The notes under the pieces: generated by a model
What the model was told of the DNA's origin: nothing
What the model saw: only the letters and a program-made list of their open reading frames with translations
Databases searched by the model: none
Program-made: the position numbers and the translations under genes
Origin: a virus
Virus record (IMG/VR): IMGVR_UViG_3300025853_009406
Span: 32,001-96,000 of that record
Reading direction: 5' to 3' (one strand)
DNA length: 64,000 bases
Shown: one piece after another, positions 848 to 32,411 of the stretch
Layout: each line of letters starts with the position of its first letter
How positions within the stretch are numbered: position 1 is the first letter of the stretch

Positions 848-3800
848 TTACTCTCCTCCGAGTGCTAGAATGAATGGGGTTAGGGTTGAGAACAACGACT
901 TGGAATATGCCGTTCCAGAGATAGTACCAGTATTCTGGTTAATGATTAGTCCGTCACCAATCTTGAAGTTACCTGACTGATCAGTACTGGTGAATACGAC
1001 CAGACCACCATTCAGATTCACAGTTTCATTTTCAGCAATAGTAACGCCACCATTCTGAGGAAGTGCAGCTTTTACATCGATACCAGAACCAATGTATTCA
1101 AATGCATGAGATGATGCGAGAACTCTACTTTGCTTGTAGAACTCAACTTCCATTCCAGCGGTTACTTCATATGGAACCTGTGCGTCAAGGGTGATTGTTG
1201 AGATTCCTGCAGAAGGATATGTTGCCTTATTAACTGTGTAGTAACTTGGATACATATCAATCACGATTCTTGCAGGTGTTCCTCCACCTATAGGAGCACC
1301 GATTGTAACGGTTGGAGGAACAATGAATCCTCTACCGCTAGAAACAACTTCAACTCCAGTTACCTGACCATTCTCGACTGTTGCGATTGCCTGTGCAGGT
1401 ACGCCCCAAGCAGTTGTTGGATTACCAATAGTAACTTCTGGAGTACTGGTATAACCAGAACCTTTAGTTGTTACTCTAATCTTGTCAACCTGATAGTATA
1501 ACTTATCAAACACAGTTACTTGACCGTCGAATGGTCTCTGTGGATTAATCTGTACTGTACCACCAGAAGTATAGAAGTGTGGGAATGGACCTTTACCTAC
1601 GTTAGCGGTAAAGTCTGTTGAAGTTGTAGCAACCGAGCATGTGGTTGGTTGACCCTTAACGATTGCGTCAGTTGCGATACCAATGAGGTTATCAATAGTA
1701 TCTTGAACATTTTGGCAAGCGTCTGGATCGTTATTGGAGTTAAGAACAGGATCAGGAGCGAGCTTGAAGTTCTTGCTATTTAGTTGATTATTGATAGCAA
1801 GTTGCATATAGTCAGCAGATGCACGGAAAGCAGTTACGGTTTCAACTTCTTCACCGATTAGTGCATCAGAGAGTGGCTTGCCAGTCTCTTGATCGAAGTA
1901 GTAGTTGGTTGCACTAATGATATTTTTATTAGTGAAGTTAAGAAGATCATTCTTAACTGCATCAACGATGTAACCAATGTCTCTTCTGCACTTAGTCTCT
2001 TGATCTAGGAGTCTACCTGCATTAGGTAAGAAGTTATCTAGTTCAGTTAGAGTACCGATTCCGATTACAGTTGTAACGATTCCGATTCTATTGTCAACTA
2101 CGTCCTGAACATCTTGACAGGTTTCAGGATTACCCGATCTTGTATAAGTGATTACTGGACCAACACCGTAGTTTGCACCACCGAAGGATAGAGTTAGATC
2201 CTTAGTATAGAGTTGGTTAGTTAGAGCACCCTTCATGTAATCACCTGCCTTACCGAAAGCAGTTACAGATTCAGATCTTTCACCATACAGACCTGGAGTT
2301 AGTGGTTGACCAGTTCCAGTGAAGTATTGCTTAGTGAAGTCTCTTGAATAAGTATTACCTCCGAGGAATACGTCAGTTGAAACAGCGTCAACTAGGTATC
2401 CAATGTCTCTTGCACACTTATAACCACCTGGGGAAGAAGTAGTTCCGAGACCAACGAAGTCATCTGCATCAGTTCCATAACCAACTGTCTGACCAAACTC
2501 GCCTGGTTGTAAGTAGAAATAACCATTGTTGATACCGTATGTTCCATCATAAAGTGCTGCAGTGTTACCTGCGGCAACTACGACTGTTACAATACCAACT
2601 AGGTTTTCAATGTTTGCCTGAACATCTGCACAGGTTTCACCATTACCCGAAGCATTATACTGGATATTACCACCAGCACCATTGTAAGATGCAGGACCGA
2701 AGGTTAAAGTTAGATCCTTAGAATATAGTTGGTTAGTTACTGCTCGCTTCATGAGAGGTTCAGCAGCTTCAAATGCGGTTAGTGAAGGTGCGAGTTCACC
2801 GTCTAGTCCGCCTCTGATTACTGATCCATCAGCGTAGTAGTATTGCTCAGAGAATCCTCTGGAATATCTATTACCACCAGTAAACACGTCAGTTGATACT
2901 GCATCAACTAAGAATCCAAGGTCTCTAGCACACTTGTAACCGCCAGGGTTCTCAGTGGTTCCGATACCAGTTCCTCTGTCGAAGATTCCAGTATCATAAG
3001 TTAGAGCGCCGAATGAAGCAGTGCTTCCAGCACCAAGAGAAACAGTTACAATACCAACCAGAGTATCAATGTTATCCTGAACATCTAAGCAGGAATTCTC
3101 GTTTCCAGACTGTAGAACAGGGATAGAGGAACCGATACCATAGTACTGAGGACCAGATGAAATACCAAGATCCTTAGTATAGAGTTGGTTAGTGATTGCA
3201 TCCTTCATCCACTCACCGCCACCCATTAAACCAACGATTGTTGGAGCAACTTCATTTCCATCAATGTGAATAGCACCAGACTGGTTGAAGTATTGCTTGG
3301 TAAACTCTTGTGAGTATCTGTTACCAGAAGTGAATACGTCGGTTGCGACGGCATCAACAAAGAATCCAACGTCTCTTGCACACTTATAACCACCTGGAGT
3401 GTTAGTTGTACCAACACCAACTGATTGATCAAATAGACCAGTGTTGAGTGGGAATGTAATAGAAGCAGTGCTTCCAGCACCAAGAGAAGATGTTACGATT
3501 CCAGCGAGAGTATCAATGGTATCTTGAATATCCTGACATGCAGTTGAAGAAGTGTTAGCAACGTCTGAACCCTCATTTCCTGCATTATATGTTGGGTTAC
3601 CAACTGAGATTGTTAGATCAGAGTATGTAGCGCCAACTAAAGAGTTAGTAATTGCATTGAGCATGTACCCTCTTGCTTGATCAAAGACATAGAGTGACTC
3701 ATCCATCTCACCCTGTAGACCATTAGAGATTAGTGAACCATTTTCAAAATATTGGAAGGTGAACTCAGAAGCATAAGTATTACCACCAGTTAGTACATCA

Positions 3801-6800
3801 AGAGCAACTGCATCAATGAAGAATCCAGTATCTCTCTTACACTTCTCTTCAACTGAAGCGAAGTTGAATGAACTGAATAGTGGGTTATTGACTGCATCGG
3901 TGAACGCTGCGCCAACGATTACCTCCTTATTGAGTTGAATCATTCTGTAAGCATCATAATATCTTGATCTTCCGTTAGACTGTGCGTCACCTGGGAAGTA
4001 GAATGCATCATAAGCATCATAACCTTGAGCAATAGAACCGATAGATCTATCGATAACTTCTTGCTTGTTCTGTTGGATTAGACGATATGAATCGAAGTAT
4101 CTGTACTGCTCATCATCTCTCTCATCAAATCCAGTGTTAAGAGTTGGGAGTTGTGAAGTGGTTCCTAGACCAACTGCAACAGTTGCAATACCAACTAGGT
4201 TCTCGATTAGGTCTTGAACATCTGCACAAGATGATGCGCTTCTGTTATCATTAGTGACGTAATCGGGAGAAATAGTTAGGTCTTGAGCATTGAGTTGGTT
4301 AGTTACTGCTCCTCTTGCGAGATCGCCAAGTGCAGTGAATGCGGTAACTGACTCAGACTCTTCACCGAGTAGACCATCAGAGATTGGATTACCATTACCA
4401 TCGAAGTATGATAGAGCGAATCCAACAACATTATCGTTAGAACCTGCCCATACATCCTCTGCGAGTGCGGAGTGTAGATAACCAAGATCTCTAGCACACT
4501 TAAATCCGCCTGGGGATGCTACAGTACCAACACCCGACTGGTTAAAGTAACCAACATTTAATGTTGGAAGACTATTGGTTGATCCAAATCCTACTGCAGT
4601 GGTAACCACTCCAACTAGGTTTTCAATGTTTGCTTGGACATCAACACAAGCTTCAGCATTACCAGAAGGTAGTACAGGGATGGAAGAACCAGCGCCTGCA
4701 TAAATCGCTTTACCTGGTGAGATTGTTAGATCTTTGACGTTGAGTTGGTTAGTGATTGCCTTTCTTGCATAGAATCCTGCGTAATCGAAGGAAACAACAC
4801 TTGGAGACTCTTCGCCAGTCAGACTTGCTGTTGGTGAACCTGCCCCATCAAAGTAGAATAGAGTGAAATCTCTTGTGTAGCTATTACCACCTGTAAATAC
4901 ATCAGTTGCAACGGCATCAACAAGGTAACCAATATCTCTTGCACACTTAGTACCACCAGGAGATAGAGTACCGAAGTCTTCCATCTGGAGTGATAACTTG
5001 GTGAATGGATCAGTGTTGACTACAAAGTTACCAGTATTGAGAGCATCGCCAGAAGGTAGTTGTGTAGTGGTTCCGAGACCAACTGCAACTGTTACGATAC
5101 CAACTAAGTTCTCAATAGCAGACTGAACATCAATACAAGCATTAGCATTACCAGAGATTAACACAGGTAGTTTAGTATCATCGGTACCGTATCTAGCAGT
5201 ACCAGAAGAAATGCCAACATCCTTAGAGTTAAGTTGGTTGGTAACTGCCTTCTTCATGAAGGTCTCTGCAGAATCAAATGCTACAAGTGATTGTGCTTCT
5301 TCACCAACCAGACCATTGCTGATTGGAAGTCCAGCGCCATCAAAGTATTGAAGAACGAACTCTCTAGAATAGCTGTTGCCTCCAGTAAATACGTCGGTTG
5401 AAACTGCATCAACTAAGAATCCAATATCTCTAGCACACTTGAATCCACCTGGGGATGAAGTAGTACCAATACCAGATTGTGAGAAGTAACCATCGTTGAT
5501 TGATGTAGGAACGTCTGCGAATGTTGCGGTTGTACCAATAGAAACAACTGCAGTAACAACTCCAACGAGAGTATCAATGTTATCCTGAACATCAATACAT
5601 GCTGCTGCATTACCCGAAGGAAGAACTGCAATATCTCCACCAGCACCACCATAAGTAGCAGCACCAGAAGAAATGCCAACATCCTTTCTATAAAGTTGGT
5701 TGGTGATTGCGTCCTTCATGAACTCACCAGCAGCAATGAATGCAGTGTTTGAAGGAGCTTCTTCGCCTAGTAGACCTGTCTTAATCCATCCACGATAGGT
5801 TGGTTCATATGACTTGACAGAATCGATTGTTGTTCTTACGAATGTATGTGCAGACTGTGGAAGATGCTTGATTGCTCCAGCGATTGCACTTACAAATGTA
5901 TGTGCTGTTTGTGGTTCATGTCTAATAGCATTACACTCAGCACGTACAAATGTGTGTACAGAACCTGATGCAGAACCAGCATTTCCAACATTAACTGTGA
6001 ATGTACCAGTCTGCCTCTCAAGACCGTTTGCAGATGCACTTACAAATGTGTGAGTTCCAGTGTAGTCAGCAGCACCAATATTAATCTTGAAGGTGTTATC
6101 AGTCTTCTCACTGATCTGTAACCAGCGACCTGATGGATAATCATATCCAGCGCGTGGATATGACTTAGATACTGTGTTACCATCTAGTTCGCAAGTGAAG
6201 GTTAGTGAACCATCATCAAGTTTAATATAATCTTCATTAGCAAATCCATGAGAAGCAACTGTTAGAACAACATCTCCAGTTGCAGGGTCATAAGTTGCTG
6301 CAGTTACAGTATGAGTGGAAACGCCAACTTCATTGATCGCAGTTGCGATACCTGAGATTGGATTGCCTGCTGCAGGATATGCATGTTCAGTAGCATTTCC
6401 ATCCTGGTCACAAGTGAAGATCATTGACTCATCTTCAATAATGACTGCACGACCAACGCCAAGACCATGCTGACCAACAGTAACAGTTAGATCACCAGTT
6501 GCTGCATTATAAGTAGCAGCAGTTGGATCAAAGTACTTGTTAGGACCAGACTTACCTACATTAACGGTTAGAGAATCATCTGTAACACCAGTAATCTTGA
6601 TTGATCTACCTGCGTATGGATCGATTCCTGGACGTGGATATGTCTTCTGTGCTTGATTATTATCAAATGCACAAGTGAAGGTGAAAGAGTTGTCCTCGAT
6701 GATAACACCCTCTCCAACACTCAGTGAGTGCTCACCAACAGTAACGGTGAAGTCACCAGTTGCAGGATCATATGTTGCTGCAGTTGGGTTGAATGACCAG

Positions 6801-9800
6801 TCAGTACCAGAAGCACCAACATTAACAGTCACTGATGTTGCACTAGTTCCAGTAATCGTTAGAGGAGAGTTATATGCAACTTGACCTTTTGCTGGTAGAG
6901 AGTGCTCACTCTTATTGCCATCCATTGCACAAGTGAAAGTGAAGCTTTCCTTGTCTAGGAAGATAACATCAGATGTTTGTAGTGGGTGATCTGCACCAAC
7001 AATCATCGTGAAGTCGCCAGTTGCAGGATTATAAGTTGCAGAAGTTGGTGTCCAACCTGCTGCCTCTTGGAAGTTATTTTGTAGATAACCAATAGCGTAG
7101 GAGTTACCTCCAGTAAATACGTCAGTTGAAACAGCGTCAACTAAGAATCCAAGATCTCTAGCACACTTAAGTCCACCAGGAGAATAGGAGCTAATACCAA
7201 GTGCCTGGTTAAACTCACCTACGTCTAGAGTTCCTTGACTTGTAGGTAGTTCTGAAGTTGTACCGATACCTACAGCGTAAGTAACAATTCCGACTAGTGC
7301 ATCAATACTATCCTGAACATCTAGACATGCATTTGCATTACCAGATCTTAGAACCTCAATGTTAGGACCGCCACCTCCGAAGTATGCTTTACCCGAAGAA
7401 ATGCCAACATCCTTATTGAAGAGTTGGTTAGTTACTGCATCCTTCATGTATTCGCCAGCAGATTCAAATGCGACGACTGAAGGACCTTCTTCACCTAGAA
7501 GACCATTAATGATTGGAGCAGCATTATCAAAATACTGCAATGCAAATCCATCTGCATAGTAGTTACCAGCAGTGAATAGGTCAGTTGAAATAGAATCGAT
7601 GAAGAAACCAAGGTCTCTTGCACACTTATAACCACCTGGTGATGAAGTAGTACCAACACCAACAGACTGGTTGAAGTAACCATAGTTGATAGTTGCCGTT
7701 ACATCAGATGCAGTTGCAGTGGTTCCTAGACCAACAACTGAAGTAACGATACCGATTAGGTTATCAATGTTGTTCTGAACGTCAATACATGAAGCTTCGT
7801 TACCAGATCTTAGAACAGCAATATCACCTCCACCACCACCATAAGAAGCAGGACCAGATGAAATACCAAGATCCTTAGTATAGAGTTGGTTAGTGATTGC
7901 GTCCTTCATGAACTCACCAGCTCCGATGAATCCATATAGAGACTGTAGTTCTTCTTCGTATAGACCCTCACTGATTGGATTACCAGTTCCATCATCGAAG
8001 TACTCAAGGATAAACTCTCTAGAATAGAGGTTACCGCCAGTAAATACGTCAGTTGAAACTGAATCGATTAGGAATCCGATGTCTCTAGCACACTTGAATC
8101 CTCCTGGAGTTGCAGTGGTTCCGATACCTGCTTGGTTGAAGATACCGAGATTTCTTGTACCAGCGAAGGAGGTTGTATTTGCCTCAGTAATAGCATCAGT
8201 TACGATTGTAACTAGGTTTTCAATGTTTGTTTGTACGTTAGCACAAGCACCAGTATCAGTATTTGAAGATGCTAGAGGATCAGTTGTAATACCAACATCA
8301 GTATAGGTTAGGTTGTTAGCAATAGCTAACTTCATTCTGTCTCTTGCTTCATTGAAAGCGTAGATGGATTGAACCTCTTCGCCACCAATACCATTATCAT
8401 AGATAGCATCATTCTCAAAATATTGTAGAGTAAAGTCTTGAGAATATGCGTTACCACCAGTTAGAATGTCAAGAGAAATGGCATCAATAAAGTAACCAAG
8501 GTCTCTCTTACACTTAGTTTCAGTGCTAAGGATACCAGGATACTGAGTTCTTGTAGCATTCCAAGAACCATTAATAATCTCATCTTTGTTTTTCTGGATC
8601 AGACGATATGAATCATAGTATCTGGAACGTGCATTTGTCTCTTCATCACCAGGGAATACCCAATCAGTTGGATAAAGATCATAGTTAACAGTGATGTTAC
8701 CAATAGATCTATCAATAATTTCTCTTCTGTTCTGTTGGATTAGACGATATGAATCGAAGAATCTTGATCTTTCATTAGTTTGAAGATCGTTAGGGAAGTA
8801 GAAATCAGGATAACTGATAGAGATAGATGCTAGTGACTTATCAATAATCTCCTGTCTATTCTGTTGGATTAGACGATATGAATCATAGTATCTGGATCTT
8901 GCTGTAGTTTGAGAATCGCCTGGGAAATAAAAGTCTGGATGCTCTAATGAAATAGCAGCAAGTGACTTATCAATAACTTCTTGTCTGTTCTGCTGGATTA
9001 GGCGATATGAATCGAAATATCTTGAGCGAGCATTGGTCTCAAGATCTCCAGGGAAGTAGAATTGATCATACTTAGTTGCAATAGAAGCAAGTGACTTATC
9101 AATAATCTCTTGCTTGTTCTCATTGATTAAACGATATGCATCATAGAATCTTGATCTTGCATTGGTCTCTGTATCGCCAGGGAAGAAGAAATCGTCATAG
9201 TTGTCATAATCTAATGAGATAGAAGCAAGGGACTTATCAACAATTTCTTGCTTGTTCTGAAGGATTAGACGATAAGAATCATAGAATCTAGATCTATCAG
9301 TCGTCTCTGCATCATCAGGGAAGTAGAAATCTGGGTGATATAGACCGATAGTCGCAAGAGACTTATCAATGATTTCATCTTTATTTGAGTTAATAAGATT
9401 AAATGAATCTTTAAATCTGTTTCTTGAAGTATCTGGGAAGTAGAAATCTGGGTGGCCAATAGCAATCTGTGCTAGCGACTTATCAATAACTTCCTGTCTG
9501 TTCTTCTGGATCAGACGATATGAATCAAAGAATCTTGATCTTGCGTTTGTCTGATTATCATTAGGGAAATAGAAATCAGGATGCTCAACAGCAATCTCTG
9601 CAAGTGATCTATCAATGATCTCTTGCTTATTATGTTGGATTAGACGATATGAATCAAAGAATCTTGATCTTGAGTTAGTCTCTTCTTCGCCTGGGAATAC
9701 AAAATCAGGATGCTTATAAGAGATAGAAGCAAGTGCCTTGTCAAGAATCTCAGTTTTGTTTGCTTCGATTGACTCGCTAGCATCACTATATCTACCAGGA

Positions 9801-10897
9801 GCAACAGACTTAACTTCAAAAATAGTACCGTAGTTACCTGTTGGATATAGAAGTGTCTCCTGACCACCGTCTGAAGTGCAAGTAAATCCTAAACCTGCAA
9901 TGGTAACACCCATACCAACACTTAGTTCGTGTTGTCTGTCGAGTGTGAATGAAGTAACTCCTGTTACATGATCATAAACAGCATCAACAACATTCATTAC
10001 AGGGGCGTTTGCATCAATCTTAATCTCAAAAGTAGATGCATCTACACCTGCATTTGATGTTACGACACCAACATATTTGAGAGGTCCGACGCCATCAGCG
10101 ACAAGACCGAAGTTGCCGAATGATGAGTTAGAGTTGGTAAGGTCGCAAGCACCACCTGACTGGCAGAGGATTGCGGTATCTGAACAGATGGTGAACATGG
10201 ACACCAACTGAGCGAATGCTTCGTTGAAGATTTTAGCACCTAAACCACCTGGGTTAATCTGGGTATAGGAGTCAAGAACCATGGACTTAATAGGTCCAAT
10301 GGCATACTTACCATCAATGTTTAGACCAATAGTGCCTGGAATGAAGTTTGTACAGTTCTGAATATATGGCGATTGGTCAATATAAGGAACAACTTCTGGG
10401 TTAAATGTAACGATTGCGCCATCGGATTTTTGTGCTGGTCCAATGAATGACATCTCTGCGATGTAGCATCCATTGTCTAACCAGAACAAGTCTCCTTGAT
10501 TTTTTGGTGTAACCGTAACTTCACGAAGTGAGTCGCCAACGACTGACACATTGTCGGGAAGTACGATTGGGTTATCTTCTAGATAAACTCCAGCACTAAT
10601 TTTAATAACAGTTCCTGGGACAGACTCTGCGACGGCAGCTTTAATGGTTCTTTTTGCGTCTCCGAGTTTCTTACCTGTGTTGTTGTCGTTACCATCTTGT
10701 GTTACATATAGGACATTAATAACGGTCGCACCAGCACCAACTCTTACAATGTCTGTTCCAATACCTGGCCTATTTCTGGCCATGTAAAGTTCGCCATCAT
10801 TAGTATTAATGGCCATTTCTCCTAGAGGGAGATCAGAGACTGTAGGTTTTTTGTTAGGTACTGAAGACCTTTTGAATCTAATTTTAGGACTTGCCAT
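848..10897 (-). CDS. giant (3349 aa) fibre-like structural protein with 12 phycobiliprotein-like split repeats
   Basis: Uninterrupted ORF. N-terminal IRFKRS..P....L..GEMAIN motif resembles T4 gp37; YVTQDGND..G....RTIKAA beta-helix cap; 12 KC[AKR]RD and 12 Cx[DN][VI]Q motifs; CATAAATA box upstream. The ORF is certain, the function is inferred. Confidence 0.8.
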   Translation of the reverse strand: MASPKIRFKRSSVPNKKPTVSDLPLGEMAINTNDGELYMARNRPGIGTDIVRVGAGATVINVLYVTQDGNDNNTGKKLGDAKRTIKAAVAESVPGTVIKISAGVYLEDNPIVLPDNVSVVGDSLREVTVTPKNQGDLFWLDNGCYIAEMSFIGPAQKSDGAIVTFNPEVVPYIDQSPYIQNCTNFIPGTIGLNIDGKYAIGPIKSMVLDSYTQINPGGLGAKIFNEAFAQLVSMFTICSDTAILCQSGGACDLTNSNSSFGNFGLVADGVGPLKYVGVVTSNAGVDASTFEIKIDANAPVMNVVDAVYDHVTGVTSFTLDRQHELSVGMGVTIAGLGFTCTSDGGQETLLYPTGNYGTIFEVKSVAPGRYSDASESIEANKTEILDKALASISYKHPDFVFPGEEETNSRSRFFDSYRLIQHNKQEIIDRSLAEIAVEHPDFYFPNDNQTNARSRFFDSYRLIQKNRQEVIDKSLAQIAIGHPDFYFPDTSRNRFKDSFNLINSNKDEIIDKSLATIGLYHPDFYFPDDAETTDRSRFYDSYRLILQNKQEIVDKSLASISLDYDNYDDFFFPGDTETNARSRFYDAYRLINENKQEIIDKSLASIATKYDQFYFPGDLETNARSRYFDSYRLIQQNRQEVIDKSLAAISLEHPDFYFPGDSQTTARSRYYDSYRLIQQNRQEIIDKSLASISISYPDFYFPNDLQTNERSRFFDSYRLIQQNRREIIDRSIGNITVNYDLYPTDWVFPGDEETNARSRYYDSYRLIQKNKDEIINGSWNATRTQYPGILSTETKCKRDLGYFIDAISLDILTGGNAYSQDFTLQYFENDAIYDNGIGGEEVQSIYAFNEARDRMKLAIANNLTYTDVGITTDPLASSNTDTGACANVQTNIENLVTIVTDAITEANTTSFAGTRNLGIFNQAGIGTTATPGGFKCARDIGFLIDSVSTDVFTGGNLYSREFILEYFDDGTGNPISEGLYEEELQSLYGFIGAGEFMKDAITNQLYTKDLGISSGPASYGGGGGDIAVLRSGNEASCIDVQNNIDNLIGIVTSVVGLGTTATASDVTATINYGYFNQSVGVGTTSSPGGYKCARDLGFFIDSISTDLFTAGNYYADGFALQYFDNAAPIINGLLGEEGPSVVAFESAGEYMKDAVTNQLFNKDVGISSGKAYFGGGGPNIEVLRSGNANACLDVQDSIDALVGIVTYAVGIGTTSELPTSQGTLDVGEFNQALGISSYSPGGLKCARDLGFLVDAVSTDVFTGGNSYAIGYLQNNFQEAAGWTPTSATYNPATGDFTMIVGADHPLQTSDVIFLDKESFTFTCAMDGNKSEHSLPAKGQVAYNSPLTITGTSATSVTVNVGASGTDWSFNPTAATYDPATGDFTVTVGEHSLSVGEGVIIEDNSFTFTCAFDNNQAQKTYPRPGIDPYAGRSIKITGVTDDSLTVNVGKSGPNKYFDPTAATYNAATGDLTVTVGQHGLGVGRAVIIEDESMIFTCDQDGNATEHAYPAAGNPISGIATAINEVGVSTHTVTAATYDPATGDVVLTVASHGFANEDYIKLDDGSLTFTCELDGNTVSKSYPRAGYDYPSGRWLQISEKTDNTFKINIGAADYTGTHTFVSASANGLERQTGTFTVNVGNAGSASGSVHTFVRAECNAIRHEPQTAHTFVSAIAGAIKHLPQSAHTFVRTTIDSVKSYEPTYRGWIKTGLLGEEAPSNTAFIAAGEFMKDAITNQLYRKDVGISSGAATYGGAGGDIAVLPSGNAAACIDVQDNIDTLVGVVTAVVSIGTTATFADVPTSINDGYFSQSGIGTTSSPGGFKCARDIGFLVDAVSTDVFTGGNSYSREFVLQYFDGAGLPISNGLVGEEAQSLVAFDSAETFMKKAVTNQLNSKDVGISSGTARYGTDDTKLPVLISGNANACIDVQSAIENLVGIVTVAVGLGTTTQLPSGDALNTGNFVVNTDPFTKLSLQMEDFGTLSPGGTKCARDIGYLVDAVATDVFTGGNSYTRDFTLFYFDGAGSPTASLTGEESPSVVSFDYAGFYARKAITNQLNVKDLTISPGKAIYAGAGSSIPVLPSGNAEACVDVQANIENLVGVVTTAVGFGSTNSLPTLNVGYFNQSGVGTVASPGGFKCARDLGYLHSALAEDVWAGSNDNVVGFALSYFDGNGNPISDGLLGEESESVTAFTALGDLARGAVTNQLNAQDLTISPDYVTNDNRSASSCADVQDLIENLVGIATVAVGLGTTSQLPTLNTGFDERDDEQYRYFDSYRLIQQNKQEVIDRSIGSIAQGYDAYDAFYFPGDAQSNGRSRYYDAYRMIQLNKEVIVGAAFTDAVNNPLFSSFNFASVEEKCKRDTGFFIDAVALDVLTGGNTYASEFTFQYFENGSLISNGLQGEMDESLYVFDQARGYMLNAITNSLVGATYSDLTISVGNPTYNAGNEGSDVANTSSTACQDIQDTIDTLAGIVTSSLGAGSTASITFPLNTGLFDQSVGVGTTNTPGGYKCARDVGFFVDAVATDVFTSGNRYSQEFTKQYFNQSGAIHIDGNEVAPTIVGLMGGGEWMKDAITNQLYTKDLGISSGPQYYGIGSSIPVLQSGNENSCLDVQDNIDTLVGIVTVSLGAGSTASFGALTYDTGIFDRGTGIGTTENPGGYKCARDLGFLVDAVSTDVFTGGNRYSRGFSEQYYYADGSVIRGGLDGELAPSLTAFEAAEPLMKRAVTNQLYSKDLTLTFGPASYNGAGGNIQYNASGNGETCADVQANIENLVGIVTVVVAAGNTAALYDGTYGINNGYFYLQPGEFGQTVGYGTDADDFVGLGTTSSPGGYKCARDIGYLVDAVSTDVFLGGNTYSRDFTKQYFTGTGQPLTPGLYGERSESVTAFGKAGDYMKGALTNQLYTKDLTLSFGGANYGVGPVITYTRSGNPETCQDVQDVVDNRIGIVTTVIGIGTLTELDNFLPNAGRLLDQETKCRRDIGYIVDAVKNDLLNFTNKNIISATNYYFDQETGKPLSDALIGEEVETVTAFRASADYMQLAINNQLNSKNFKLAPDPVLNSNNDPDACQNVQDTIDNLIGIATDAIVKGQPTTCSVATTSTDFTANVGKGPFPHFYTSGGTVQINPQRPFDGQVTVFDKLYYQVDKIRVTTKGSGYTSTPEVTIGNPTTAWGVPAQAIATVENGQVTGVEVVSSGRGFIVPPTVTIGAPIGGGTPARIVIDMYPSYYTVNKATYPSAGISTITLDAQVPYEVTAGMEVEFYKQSRVLASSHAFEYIGSGIDVKAALPQNGGVTIAENETVNLNGGLVVFTSTDQSGNFKIGDGLIINQNTGTISGTAYSKSLFSTLTPFILALGGE
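1655..9793 (-). repeat. intragenic repeat array: 12 A units (~43 aa) and 12 B units (~150 aa)
   Basis: A consensus R[FY]xD[SA]YRLIxxNxxE[IV]IDxSLxxIxxxxPDFYFPG. B-unit first Cys codons at 8510, 8090, 7622, 7163, 5435, 4943, 4496, 3839, 3380, 2930, 2414, 1988. Confidence 0.95.
5817..7054 (-). repeat. four beta-rich repeats (ATYxPATGD...FTC...P) inserted within B unit 4
   Basis: Four opening segments followed by four HTFV closing segments in the translation. Confidence 0.9.
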
Positions 10898-11541: not shown

Positions 11542-12108
11542 TTAATATTCCCCACCATCAAAATCGATACGGTTATCAAGATCTGTGTCAAGTTGATCAA
11601 TAAAGACTTCTGGTAGACCTGGATTCTCGGGTTCTTCAACAGCAGCAGAAAGAACGTTGTCTGGGTTTTCCGCTCTCCACTTATCGAGTAGTTCATTATA
11701 CATGAGAGTGTATCTATCTTTAGCATCATCGACATCAGTATCGACAAGATCGGATAGACGAAGACCACTAAGTTTATCAAGGATAGCTTGCAGAAGCTCG
11801 TTAGATGAGTCTAGTTGTAAGTTAGATCTTAAGTATGCTAAGAAATCTTCAGGTAATCCTGGTTGAGTAGTTTCAGTTAAAGCAGCAGCACTAAAAATCT
11901 CATCGGGGTTAACTGATTCATATTTTTCAGTATTCTCATTAAACATTAACACATATTTATCCAATGTGTTGTCTATGTCAACATCCTGAAGATCGGAAAG
12001 TTTCCTTGCCATTACTATTCCTGATTTAGTAACTACTTTAATATTTCCTAATGGGAGTTTACTTTTTACATTAAATAGTTTTTTTCTTACTCTGACTTTG
12101 ATTGTCAT
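11542..12108 (-). CDS. structural protein with an internal duplication
   Basis: Two copies of LSDLxDxDxD...YxLMxNE...NPDxxxSAA...PGLPExF; ends DGGEY. Confidence 0.7.
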   Translation of the reverse strand: MTIKVRVRKKLFNVKSKLPLGNIKVVTKSGIVMARKLSDLQDVDIDNTLDKYVLMFNENTEKYESVNPDEIFSAAALTETTQPGLPEDFLAYLRSNLQLDSSNELLQAILDKLSGLRLSDLVDTDVDDAKDRYTLMYNELLDKWRAENPDNVLSAAVEEPENPGLPEVFIDQLDTDLDNRIDFDGGEY

Positions 12109-12437
12109 ATGGTAGTATCCTCGACAATTATTGTTCCAGTTACAACTCTAGTGACAAAATCTAACTCACTATTTTGAATAAACACATCAAAATAGTTTCT
12201 TCCAGAGCTCAACTCCGTTGTCATGGATCTCCCCATGGAGATATTTACCTCTGCATCTGCTGTAGTAATACCAACAACAAAACTATGCGACTTAGTTGCT
12301 GTTGGATGTTTTTTGATCTTTGCAAATGCAGTAGTATATAGCAAGTTGAGCATGTCGCCGTCATCACCAGTTAGATAGAATGATGCTTCAAAATCTGCAC
12401 CTTTTTCTATTGTTAGGTTAACAACAGATGCACTCAT
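12105..12437 (-). CDS. putative baseplate/fibre-associated protein
   Basis: NLTIEKGADF N-terminus, Ig-like pattern, AATAAATA box upstream. Confidence 0.6.
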   Translation of the reverse strand: MSASVVNLTIEKGADFEASFYLTGDDGDMLNLLYTTAFAKIKKHPTATKSHSFVVGITTADAEVNISMGRSMTTELSSGRNYFDVFIQNSELDFVTRVVTGTIIVEDTTI

Positions 12438-15181: not shown

Positions 15182-15706
15182 TTAGTCAATTTGTTTGTCG
15201 AACTCAAACATCCCATACTCTGATCCCCATACCATTTTTTTAGTTACAGGATCATATCCCCTATCAATAACTCTATAAGTATTTTTTCTCAATTCAGACA
15301 TGGTAAATAAGAACGATTCTTTACCATTTTTATTTACCATACATTCACACCCCATGATCATACCATAATAAACACCATTCTGTTTAGTAAAAATACAATC
15401 ACAGTTCTCATTCTTTTCTAAATCATCTTCAGTGATTTTATCTATATCAGTGAAATATAAAAATCTTTTACCATCCTTCACTTTATAACTACTAACTATT
15501 AGTTTATCTTCATACTGATTTATCTCCAGAACAAACTGTCTATAAGGAGGTTGTTTGCGAACAGAATATTTCTGTTCTCCATAAATCATATTATTACTTA
15601 ATAACTCATGACGTAAACTAATCTGAGAATATTGTGAAGGGTATGAAAATGCTTGTTTTCGATTATGAAAAGATCCAAGTAACCATTCTGTAAACTCCTC
15701 AATCAT
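15182..15706 (-). CDS. cpeT: CpcT/CpeT (T-type) bilin lyase
   Basis: Family motifs GxFxNxxQAFxYP, EQxY...PYRQ, DRGYD...VWGS..G.FEF. Confidence 0.92.
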   Translation of the reverse strand: MIEEFTEWLLGSFHNRKQAFSYPSQYSQISLRHELLSNNMIYGEQKYSVRKQPPYRQFVLEINQYEDKLIVSSYKVKDGKRFLYFTDIDKITEDDLEKNENCDCIFTKQNGVYYGMIMGCECMVNKNGKESFLFTMSELRKNTYRVIDRGYDPVTKKMVWGSEYGMFEFDKQID

Positions 15707-16398
15707 TCAGTACTACCTCTTCTTTGATGACGTATTAATGTAGAAAATAATACCTTACCAATAGCAGATATTAGATTACCTTCAATTTCATTAAAGACAT
15801 TCATATTTAGTTTGAATGCTAGATTAGCTTCTTTGATAATCTCATCGATTTCATTTTGATCGAAAGGAAGAGTATCTAATACATCTCTATAATCTCCCTT
15901 AAAAACTTTTTCATCTTTAATATCTTTAAAAATATAAAAGTTCATCCCAACATCAGGAACTTTTAAAGCAGATTGAGCAATATTTTTCAATACTTGTCCA
16001 CCAGAAAGATCGCCAATATACCTAGTATAATGATGTGCAATCAATAAGTCTTGATTTTCATTAGATACCTCTTTAATCCTGGCAACATATTCTTTGCAAG
16101 ATTTTGTTTGAGTAATCCTTTCTTTCCAATCATATCCTAGATAATATTCTAAATCTTTTTCTAAAGATTTTTTTCTGAAGAGTTGTGGAAAATAAATGTT
16201 TGACACAATCATATCATCTTTGTGTCTTTCAAACTCTTCTTCCATCGCGGAATAGATATGGTACAAGTCTGATAGTAATCTTACATAAGATTTCTTTTCA
16301 ACCACACCTTTGAGAAAACAGGTAATGAAACCTGTATTCTCTGCCATAGTGTGAGATTTTTTAGTACCTTCTCTTATTTGTTGTGATAGGTTAGACAT
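15703..16398 (-). CDS. ho1: cyanobacterial-type heme oxygenase
   Basis: REGTKKSHTMAENTGFITCFLKG (proximal His), HHYTRYIGDLSGGQ, C-terminal RGSTE. Confidence 0.97.
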   Translation of the reverse strand: MSNLSQQIREGTKKSHTMAENTGFITCFLKGVVEKKSYVRLLSDLYHIYSAMEEEFERHKDDMIVSNIYFPQLFRKKSLEKDLEYYLGYDWKERITQTKSCKEYVARIKEVSNENQDLLIAHHYTRYIGDLSGGQVLKNIAQSALKVPDVGMNFYIFKDIKDEKVFKGDYRDVLDTLPFDQNEIDEIIKEANLAFKLNMNVFNEIEGNLISAIGKVLFSTLIRHQRRGSTE

Positions 16399-31706: not shown

Positions 31707-32411
31707 ATGACTTGGAAGTATAACAGTGAAGATTTTATAGAGTCCCCAAAGGGGATAGAAGGATTTGTTTATCTAATAACAAACTTAACCAATGATAGAA
31801 AATATATTGGAAAGAAATCTTTTTGGACAAGAAGAAAAGATAAAAAAACTGGTAGAAGAAAAACAAAAGAAAGTGATTGGAAAAATTATTTTGGTTCCTG
31901 CGATGAACTAAATGAAGATGTAAAACTTCTTGGTAAAGATATTTTTTTGAGGGAAATTCTTTATTTGTGCCCTCACAAAAAATCAATGTCTTACTATGAA
32001 ACCATGGAACAATTCAAAAGAGATGTTCTAATGACTGATGATTATTATAACACAAATATTGAAGGAAGATTTTTTGTTAGTGAAAGATCTGGAATATATG
32101 AAGTTGTTATGAAAAATGATAAGTTTTGTGATATGAGAAGTGAGAAAATGAAAGACAAATCATATAACCCAATGTATAAACCAGAAGTTCGTGAAAAATT
32201 TAGTAAGATGTATTCGGGTGAAGGGAATCCAATGTATGGAAGAAAACTCACAGAAGAACATAAAAAAACACTTACTACATCAAGAAATGTTAGAGTAAGT
32301 GATGGAGAAAATGTTTGGGAAAGTGTTACTTCATATATGAAAGATAAAAAAATTGGGTTTAAAAAATATAAAGCACAATTACAAGAGGGATTAATTTTTA
32401 TCGTTAACTAA
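31707..32411 (+). CDS. GIY-YIG (Seg-like) homing endonuclease with a NUMOD3 motif
   Basis: GFVYLITN...YIGKK, YFGS, YYNTN, GEGNPMYGRKLTEEHKK; the only clear plus-strand gene. Confidence 0.9.
   Translation: MTWKYNSEDFIESPKGIEGFVYLITNLTNDRKYIGKKSFWTRRKDKKTGRRKTKESDWKNYFGSCDELNEDVKLLGKDIFLREILYLCPHKKSMSYYETMEQFKRDVLMTDDYYNTNIEGRFFVSERSGIYEVVMKNDKFCDMRSEKMKDKSYNPMYKPEVREKFSKMYSGEGNPMYGRKLTEEHKKTLTTSRNVRVSDGENVWESVTSYMKDKKIGFKKYKAQLQEGLIFIVN

Follow-up and report, generated by a model that had tools for sequence, protein, structure and literature searches.

The closest precedent for the nested virion fibre predicted here is, by analogy, the Si3 insertion of cyanobacterial RNA polymerase. In the accessible part of the structural report on Si3 of the beta' subunit (RpoC2), the sandwich-barrel hybrid motif (SBHM) domains SBHM-2 to -5 include elements of distant regions; the crystal structure comprises domains of the same fold built from far-apart stretches, with the chain folding back to give a rod 150 Å long (PMC10895346). 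In the accessible part of a 2026 survey of 2.7 million domains, Si3 is a six-level recursive insertion with bifurcating nodes and the deepest one of that survey (PMC13114784). The present analysis concerns a stretch of virus DNA of 64,000 nucleotides, referred to below as the window, which corresponds to positions 32,001 to 96,000 of the IMG/VR virus record IMGVR_UViG_3300025853_009406 (116,740 bases, CheckV completeness estimate 61 %). Within the window a single minus-strand open reading frame (ORF) encodes a protein of 3349 amino acids (aa) and contains the whole of a repeat system made up of two kinds of unit, A and B. Phycobiliproteins, the second system with which these units are compared, have an N-terminal X-Y helix hairpin and assemble into alpha-beta monomers and rings.

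Sequence comparisons and structure models together make it quite probable that the protein contains twelve phycobiliprotein-like domains recursively inserted into one another, in a branched arrangement ten levels deep. The middle ~2700 residues would be twelve copies of one helical globin-fold domain, each copy inserted into the loop between helix 2 and helix 3 of the preceding one. The chain would lay down the two-helix halves A1 to A10 first and then the uninterrupted tip domain A10+B1; on the return run four-helix halves would dock on the waiting A halves, B2 on A9 through B7 on A4. A second arm of two domains (A11, A12+B8, B9) would be made before domain 3 closes, and the trunk would be closed last, with B10 docking on A3, B11 on A2 and B12 on A1. 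The expected product is a single-chain Y-shaped rod with both chain ends at the base and every inter-domain junction crossed by two strands, which would fold from the tips inward and serve as a structural stalk of adjustable length, its length and branching being tuned in relatives by gain or loss of A and B together. The original prediction, made from the letters alone, had proposed that every domain enters its predecessor at the same loop, the chain running out and back, and had called the resulting stack antenna-like, a term that describes the shape only. This proposal was supported by all the tests run. The same holds for the 3-domain trunk with 7- and 2-domain arms: the sequence and model data support a trunk of A1/B12, A2/B11 and A3/B10, whose third domain would host both A4/B7 to A10/B1 (seven domains) and A11/B9 with A12/B8 (two domains).

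The PHROG families matched by the protein were 'short tail fiber', 'tail fiber' and 'virion structural protein', the label 'T4 gp12-type short tail fibre' being a RefSeq/PHROG family name only. A tblastn search with the protein matched 424 phage records, whose names are all Synechococcus, Prochlorococcus, Cyanophage or Marine virus; in a megablast comparison of the gene with phages two short matches were the only result. In S-PM2 and P-RSM6 the homologue of the gene sits amid baseplate and virion genes. On these matches the product of this T4-like cyanophage ORF is classified as a giant, fibre-like protein of the virion.

The A and B units were located by motif scans and by hidden Markov models (HMMs) built from the units themselves. 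The A units, ~33 aa plus a linker with a consensus like RSRFFDSYRLIQQNKQEIIDKSLASI..PDFYFPGD, stand in tandem with a regular spacing of about 43 aa at aa 367-788 and 2264-2341. The B units have a core of ~125 aa that starts with KC[AKR]RD and ends with C.DVQ..I..LVGIVT. The predicted repeat order, A1-A10, B1-B7, A11-A12, B8-B12 and never unbalanced, was recovered by the unit HMMs: the 12 A and 12 B units form the balanced word A10B7A2B5, and the span for which the order had been claimed, 1655-9793, is equivalent to about aa 369-3081, i.e. A1 to B12. After HMM position 37, B4 is interrupted by 423 aa that belong to a different repeat. The start motif is KCKRD in B1 and B8 only, KCRRD in B12 and KCARD in the other nine B units, which bears out the claim that both tip domains use KCKRD. 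DRSIG, which had been noticed in both penultimate units, occurs in A9 and A11 and nowhere else. The divergence assigned to the pairs A1/B12 and A4/B7 is also reflected in the lowest HMM scores among non-tip units, both for A (A1 51.8, A4 58.0) and for B (B12 144.6, B7 148.9). If 12 A and 12 B units were ordered at random, a balanced word would arise with a probability of 1/13; the weight of the evidence from balanced order rests on the homologues.

Each homologue was written as an A/B word with the use of iterated A and B-start HMMs. In the 'near' list, of which the best 120 proteins were listed (including P0002, the window's own protein), 48 proteins were of the nested type at E<=1, 53 were tandem, 7 were divergent and B-rich and 12 had no units. 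Balanced words were found in 44/48 of the nested-type proteins at E<=1 and in 46/48 after reading by eye, by which P0006 was seen to have A12 and P0043 one further A. Among the 120 proteins listed as 'shorter', 112 were balanced, with the words A4B4 (75 proteins), A3B3A2B2 (17), A3B3 (9), A5B5 (7), A6B6 (3) and A3B2A2B3 (1). The locus set comprised 68 ORFs closed at both ends, with some contigs counted twice. At E<=0.01 balance was found in 51/68 of them, and in 66/68 with rescued or explained misses: 11 unbalanced ORFs belong to the window's own family, with A12 below the threshold, 4 turned balanced once hits with E 0.02-0.11 were admitted, and the last 2 are halves of one split gene, L062. 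The three isolate genomes were all balanced (S-PM2 ABA4B4, S-RSM4 A2BA4B4AB2 and P-RSM6 A2B2(AB)4, the last word being read by eye). At least 28 distinct balanced words were recorded across the homologues, many of them branched, e.g. A2BA3B2AB3 and A3B2A2B3. The nesting depth of 10 in the window protein was the greatest among the balanced proteins tallied, the others reaching 6 at most. Homologues with unequal A and B counts, named in the original prediction as grounds for rejecting it, were thus almost never found, and its expectation that homologues gain or lose A and B units in pairs stood for nearly all proteins and failed for P0024, with 9 A and 10 B.

The Pfam phycobilisome-protein family PF00502 (phycocyanin, phycoerythrin and allophycocyanin) matched the whole protein with 36.4 bits (cut-off 22.2; E 6.3e-9), the best stretch being aa 762-828, from A10 into B1, on profile positions 33-108. 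A profile was built from eight tip domains of the window and of three loci; in its comparison with the PDB 48/48 sequences at E<=1 were phycobiliproteins (best 7efv_A, E 1.8e-4), and the alignment puts the Cys of the unit on the Cys of KCARDIGYY in C-phycocyanin alpha. In AlphaFold2 (AF2) models the A unit consists of two helices and the B unit of four. In a wide VIA fold search the tip domain of the A8-B3 model was matched to phycoerythrin 5aqd_M with Z 16.0 (root mean square deviation, rmsd, 2.0 Å, 138 aligned) and to the ApcE bilin domain 4xxi_A with Z 14.6; the tip domain of the second model (A11-B9) demonstrated Z 15.5 and 13.8 for phycoerythrin and ApcE, respectively. In a second-look VIA search 50/50 rows were phycobiliproteins with Z 15.4-17.2, and globin-coupled sensors and globins followed below the phycobiliproteins in the fold search with Z 6-11. 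Sequence identity in the structural alignments to phycobiliproteins was 11-18 %. The uninterrupted tip domain fills the VIA result lists and the split domains were probed by one row (8wix_B) only; with A11-B9 the sole row spanning the whole two-level model was the unrelated 2i2x_B, Z 5.4.

Plain tandem (AB)n arrays of complete domains are present in many relatives, with up to 22 detected pairs, and the seeming extra terminal B of these arrays is preceded by a divergent A that the HMM misses. Sequence profiles and predicted structures agree that one phycobiliprotein-like, globin-fold domain has A as its N-terminal third and B as the remaining, C-terminal two-thirds. In the window protein these parts are sorted into arrays of their own. 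Because A followed by B forms one such domain, the A units are regarded as split-off half-domains. The tandem arrangement of the A units and their regular ~43-aa spacing, like that of many solenoid repeats, could also suggest an independent helical solenoid or spacer, with the B units as self-sufficient four-helix domains and the equal counts as a coincidence. This explanation is close to refuted, since A then B aligns as one domain to phycobiliproteins and equal balanced counts recur in at least 28 distinct architectures.

The sequence alignments to phycocyanin start at its residue 39, and the X-Y N-terminal hairpin was not detected there. According to the models, the parent half-domain may occupy the place that the X-Y arm has in true phycobiliproteins, because the alignment ranges, taken as ranges only, start in A9. 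In many fold alignments the phycobiliprotein N-terminal helix (residues ~1-17) is matched by the second helix of A9, at residues 66-81 of the AF2 model of aa 658-1222, with model_range starting at 66-70.

Equal totals would result from every scheme in which one A pairs with one B, and the order of pairing was therefore tested separately. A linker of ~8 residues connects tip A to tip B, and the two form one domain in both AF2 models; because of this contiguity first-in-first-out pairing is excluded. The two models, of A8-B3 (565 aa, 29-row alignment of cores) and A11-B9 (382 aa, 58-row alignment of cores), had a predicted local distance difference test score (pLDDT) of 82.9 and 86.4, respectively, and a predicted template modelling score (pTM) of 0.88 each, with the separated A units at pLDDT ~90-97. 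Structure prediction of nested fragments, which had been suggested as a check, thus gave single rigid bodies. The haemoglobin chain 8wix_B (146 aa) was aligned over 141 residues (Z 6.2, rmsd 4.0) to residues 8..557 of the A8-B3 model, therefore only A8 plus B3 can be aligned, and other haemoglobins score about as high (Z 6-7) against the uninterrupted tip domain. A BFVD model of an S-CAM1 tail protein, made separately, could be superposed on the two-level model over its full 382 columns with TMq 0.77 and E 3e-18.

Covariation was determined as mutual information (MI) with average product correction between A and B columns of HMM-aligned three-level cores (AAABBB around a tip). In the full core set (179 cores; effective number of sequences, Neff, 68) 74 of the top 100 MI pairs fell in the three anti-diagonal blocks. 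A switch between base and middle units would give trivial covariation, so the cores were filtered for those with at least one more A before and at least one more B after them (128 cores, Neff 42). In the filtered cores stack (last-in-first-out) pairing ranked 1st of the 6 bijections at top-50, top-100 and top-200 (30, 55 and 99 pairs, respectively) and was best in 196/200 bootstraps. The column pairs A13-B72, A13-B74, A30-B53 and A8-B74 scored high in the core blocks A2-B2 and A1-B3 but close to zero in blocks off the anti-diagonal, and A13-B72 was high in the uninterrupted tip block too. Column pairs that recur across split and tip blocks are what a conserved physical interface predicts. The correlation of whole MI maps between blocks was weak (0.0-0.23), only the top cells being informative. 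A–B covariation specific to mirrored levels is a further argument against the A units as an independent solenoid.

Gain and loss of units were followed in pairs of related proteins. The extra A and B could be read as a stack pair in 5 of 6 usable comparisons (L044/L024, L024/L040, P0068/P0079, L011/L041 and L021/L078); L016 vs L065 was left out as too divergent. P0024 is without counterparts of B3 and B4 and of their stack partners A8 and A7, and A6 is missing too.

A11 (45 aa) and B9 (142 aa) were also modelled as two separate chains. The ipSAE was 0.59 (runs 0.60, 0.55 and 0.59) in comparison to 0.01 for the best control; the pass mark was reached by 58/80 solved complexes and 2/110 mismatched pairs, and passing scores of <=0.60 were found for only 7/80 solved complexes plus both passing mismatches. 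Between the runs at least 78 % of contacts agreed, and the partner pLDDT was at least 62. The result lends weak support to an association of the two chains, and the pass may stem from likeness to solved phycobiliproteins. With A11 as partner B9 had a pLDDT of 67-70, with unrelated partners one of 39-43, and this fall of model confidence without A again argues against self-sufficient B domains. Taken together, the pTM values, the one fold-search row, the covariation and the weak two-chain score lead us to infer that the separated A halves dock on the B halves.

Association in two chains would also fit a one-to-one pairing of A and B halves between chains, in a domain-swapped oligomer, the tree then being a property of the assembly. 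Phage fibres are generally oligomers, and count parity and covariation are as much expected from pairing between chains as from pairing within a chain, so that sequence cannot tell the two apart. Such inter-chain pairing is nevertheless unlikely, as the monomer models already hold all units in one rigid body, tip A and tip B are connected by a short linker and form one domain in the models, and pairing between chains needs equal totals only, whereas the strict never-negative order is needed for nesting within a chain.

Several results weigh against the nested arrangement. No single stretch of the PF00502 match passes the cut-off alone, and Foldseek against the PDB gave E values of only 0.05-0.3, none at E<=0.001, with phycobiliproteins in the top rows. 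Among the homologues, P0024 (2483 aa, metagenomic), with 9 A vs 10 B in the word A7B5A2B5, is the sole clear exception to balance; it keeps the counterpart of B5 without its stack partner A6, and is either a protein in which one unpaired B is tolerated or an assembly in which repeats have collapsed. P0052 is unbalanced as well, its word A2BA4B4 being a prefix of the common word A2BA4B4AB2, and so are 8/120 of the 'shorter' proteins, whose words are all the start or the end of a balanced one; P0052 and these eight are probably truncated genes, as at contig ends. In exact A4B4 modules (N=89, Neff 25) stack pairing ranked 2, 6 and 8 of 24 and was best in 24/200 bootstraps; the named column pairs were still anti-diagonal there, but the sequences are part of the same data. 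In the comparison of L024 vs L037 the best matches pointed to A3 with B3, a combination outside stack pairing. The congruence of A-A and B-B similarity, another check put forward in the original prediction, was in part as expected: the Mantel test favoured stack pairing in 9/14 proteins and first-in-first-out in 5/14, the latter with simple A^nB^n modules. This test was judged to be confounded because tip and base units diverge by position. The support for docking of the separated halves is, moreover, computational throughout.

The Mantel result in the five proteins, the non-stack bijections that outscored stack pairing in the exact A4B4 modules and the non-stack pair in L024 vs L037 could reflect one-to-one pairing within the chain that follows some other permutation beyond the tip. 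First-in-first-out, however, would part the contiguous tip A and tip B that form one domain in the models, stack pairing came first in the three-level cores and in nearly all of their bootstraps, the contact-like column pairs light up on the anti-diagonal only, the 8wix_B globin alignment spans A8 to B3, and crossing pairings would be expected to knot or strain the short A-A linkers. Another permutation is therefore very improbable, and recursive nesting with last-in-first-out pairing is retained as the preferred explanation.

A second repeat, of beta type, is found in the same protein. The 423-aa insert in B4 contains four 'FTC' openers followed by four 'HTFV' closers. A fifth opener of this type, LGFTC, lies at aa 336 in the N-terminal region (aa ~300-365), just ahead of A1, and a possible divergent closer, PHFYT, comes after B12 (aa ~3100-3130). 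The beta-type repeat may also be nested and, because the LGFTC opener precedes A1 and the possible closer follows B12, it may even enclose the complete A/B tree as an insert, as judged from these motifs. In a rough motif count in 241 proteins equal non-zero numbers of openers and closers were found in 40, and many others had n openers and n-1 closers. The P-RSM6 protein (L096 7833-33551), a virion structural protein of 8573 aa from a Prochlorococcus phage, has the word A2B2(AB)4 and many beta-type repeats.

The Cys, Arg and Asp of the KC(K/A)RD motif are presumed to correspond to those of the Cys-84 bilin-attachment site. They are present in 12/12 B units of the window protein and were kept in 1772/1816 B units of 240 proteins. 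All 12 B units have a second conserved Cys just ahead of the last helix (C.DVQ; e.g. aa 885, 1037, 1191, 1767 and 3061), which may pair with the first Cys or serve as another attachment site; its motif was found in 815/1816 B units overall, mostly of the nested type. The genes cpeT (CpeT-type lyase) and ho1 (heme oxygenase) lie on the same strand as the giant gene, 4.3 kb upstream of it, and a ferredoxin-dependent bilin reductase is encoded elsewhere in the same virus record (G000:C1:7312-7965; PF05996, E 2.6e-54). In S-RSM4 cpeT (L095 16528-17052) is located ~1 kb upstream of the homologous gene, of 4482 aa.

It is doubtful whether the nested tree is a pigmented antenna on the virus particle, with chromophores carried by the phage's own fibre. 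The idea is kept open because the C, R and D of the bilin site are conserved and cpeT, ho1 and a bilin reductase are encoded by the virus. If it were true, at least part of the use of the cyanophage bilin genes, long unexplained, would be to load chromophores onto the phage fibre, where recursive nesting would keep them in a rigid, branched arrangement, and the pigmented fibre could sense light, make adsorption depend on light or mimic antenna proteins of the host. To our knowledge, the Prochlorococcus host of P-RSM6 has no standard phycobilisome. With relatives of light-harvesting proteins in the virion, the question why cyanophages, including Prochlorococcus phages, carry bilin-synthesis genes becomes directly testable. 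The benefit of these genes to cyanophages is described as unclear in the accessible part of a published study (PMC2984593).

The features of the locus are collected in Table 1. A small minus-strand ORF at window positions 12105-12437, between cpeT and the giant gene, matched phrog_3304 (E 1e-18) and Pfam PF23926 (LtfC-like / L-shaped tail fibre assembly; E 6e-4, below the family cut-off), and its product could be a fibre chaperone.

Table 1. Features of the giant fibre-like gene and neighbouring bilin genes in the window; partners, levels and arms are those predicted for the nested arrangement
Feature	Residues (aa)	Window position	Strand	Predicted partner or place	Basis and remarks
Whole gene	3349 aa	848..10897	minus	giant fibre-like virion protein	PHROG, tblastn
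N-terminal region	1-366	9800..10897	minus	outside A/B tree	phrog_17885 at aa 5-296
A1, divergent	367-399	9701..9799	minus	B12; trunk level 1	HMM
A2	410-442	9572..9670	minus	B11; trunk level 2	HMM
A3	453-485	9443..9541	minus	B10; trunk level 3, branch point hosting both arms	HMM
A4, divergent	492-524	9326..9424	minus	B7; base of 7-domain arm	HMM
A5	535-567	9197..9295	minus	B6	HMM
A6	581-613	9059..9157	minus	B5	HMM
A7	624-656	8930..9028	minus	B4	HMM
A8	667-699	8801..8899	minus	B3	HMM; AF2 model residues 9-38, pLDDT ~90
A9, DRSIG	710-742	8672..8770	minus	B2	HMM, AF2 model
A10, tip half-domain	757-788	8534..8629	minus	contiguous with B1	fold match over model 97-247
B1, KCKRD	795-909	8171..8515	minus	tip of arm 1	HMM, fold match
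B2	935-1061	7715..8095	minus		HMM
B3	1091-1215	7253..7627	minus		HMM, fold search
B4, first part	1244-1280	7058..7168	minus		HMM positions 1-37
Insert inside B4	1281-1703	5789..7057	minus		423 aa; four beta-type 'FTC' openers, then four 'HTFV' closers
B4, second part	1704-1791	5525..5788	minus		HMM positions 39-125
B5	1820-1945	5063..5440	minus		HMM
B6	1984-2107	4577..4948	minus		HMM
B7, divergent	2133-2248	4154..4501	minus	closes A4	HMM
A11, DRSIG	2264-2296	4010..4108	minus	B9; base of 2-domain arm	AF2 pLDDT 92-97
A12, tip half-domain	2310-2341	3875..3970	minus	contiguous with B8	HMM, AF2 model
B8, KCKRD	2352-2478	3464..3844	minus	tip of arm 2	HMM
B9	2505-2627	3017..3385	minus	closes A11	HMM, AF2 model, two-chain test
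B10	2655-2780	2558..2935	minus	closes A3	HMM
B11	2827-2950	2048..2419	minus	closes A2	HMM
B12, KCRRD, divergent	2969-3085	1643..1993	minus	closes A1	HMM
C-terminal region	3086-3349 + stop	848..1642	minus		phrog_3442 at aa 3117-3346
cpeT		15182-15706	minus		PF06206, E 4e-36
Heme oxygenase ho1		15703-16398	minus		PF01126, E 1e-78

Domain insertion is common, and deep self-nesting is very rare. In a literature search that covered neither supplements nor subscription journals, no paper was found on phycobiliprotein-like domains in the virion proteins of phages or on deep nesting of a helical fold in a phage protein; the preprint 10.1101/2024.12.13.628456 contained 0 occurrences of the terms sought. 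If the nested arrangement is correct, a different, helical fold would be nested ten deep with a branch, beyond the six-level record given in the accessible part of the survey (PMC13114784), and a phage protein family would follow a bracket grammar with dozens of trees. The family would then be a natural system for studying protein growth by insertion, chain folding (expected to proceed from the tip inward) and the tuning of fibre length and branching. The protein also brings relatives of host light-harvesting proteins into the virion.

With the tandem (AB)n cyanophage proteins the window protein shares the half-domains, the CxRD motif, the C-terminal domain (aa 3086-3349) and the beta-type repeats. 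The tandem proteins differ in having complete domains head to tail and a shorter B part, and most of them are without the second conserved Cys. With phycobiliproteins (PF00502) the fold is shared in the AF2 models (Z 15-17, rmsd ~2 Å over ~130-138 residues), the sequence profiles match and, in the alignment, the K-C-x-R-D-[IL]-G-[YF] motif falls on the bilin site at Cys-84. Phycobiliproteins are made of separate alpha and beta subunits, whereas the domains of the 3349-aa virion protein are concatenated and predicted to be nested. ApcE has a loop insertion between the same two helices.

The likeness to Si3 lies in the architecture: in the part of the record available for Si3, as in the prediction for the phage protein, copies of one fold are nested in one another and the chain doubles back into a long rod. 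In the phage models a domain of the same fold is enclosed by two distant stretches, and openers and closers are balanced in full-length members of the family, with the exceptions of P0024, P0052 and the eight probably truncated proteins. The two systems differ in that Si3 is built of the beta sandwich-barrel hybrid motif and belongs to a cellular enzyme, whereas the phage protein is a virion fibre with a helical globin-like fold. The Si3 structure has been solved, and the nesting of the phage protein is predicted. Si3 has six levels in the accessible part of its description, in comparison to 10 predicted for the phage protein, whose family holds many different balanced architectures.

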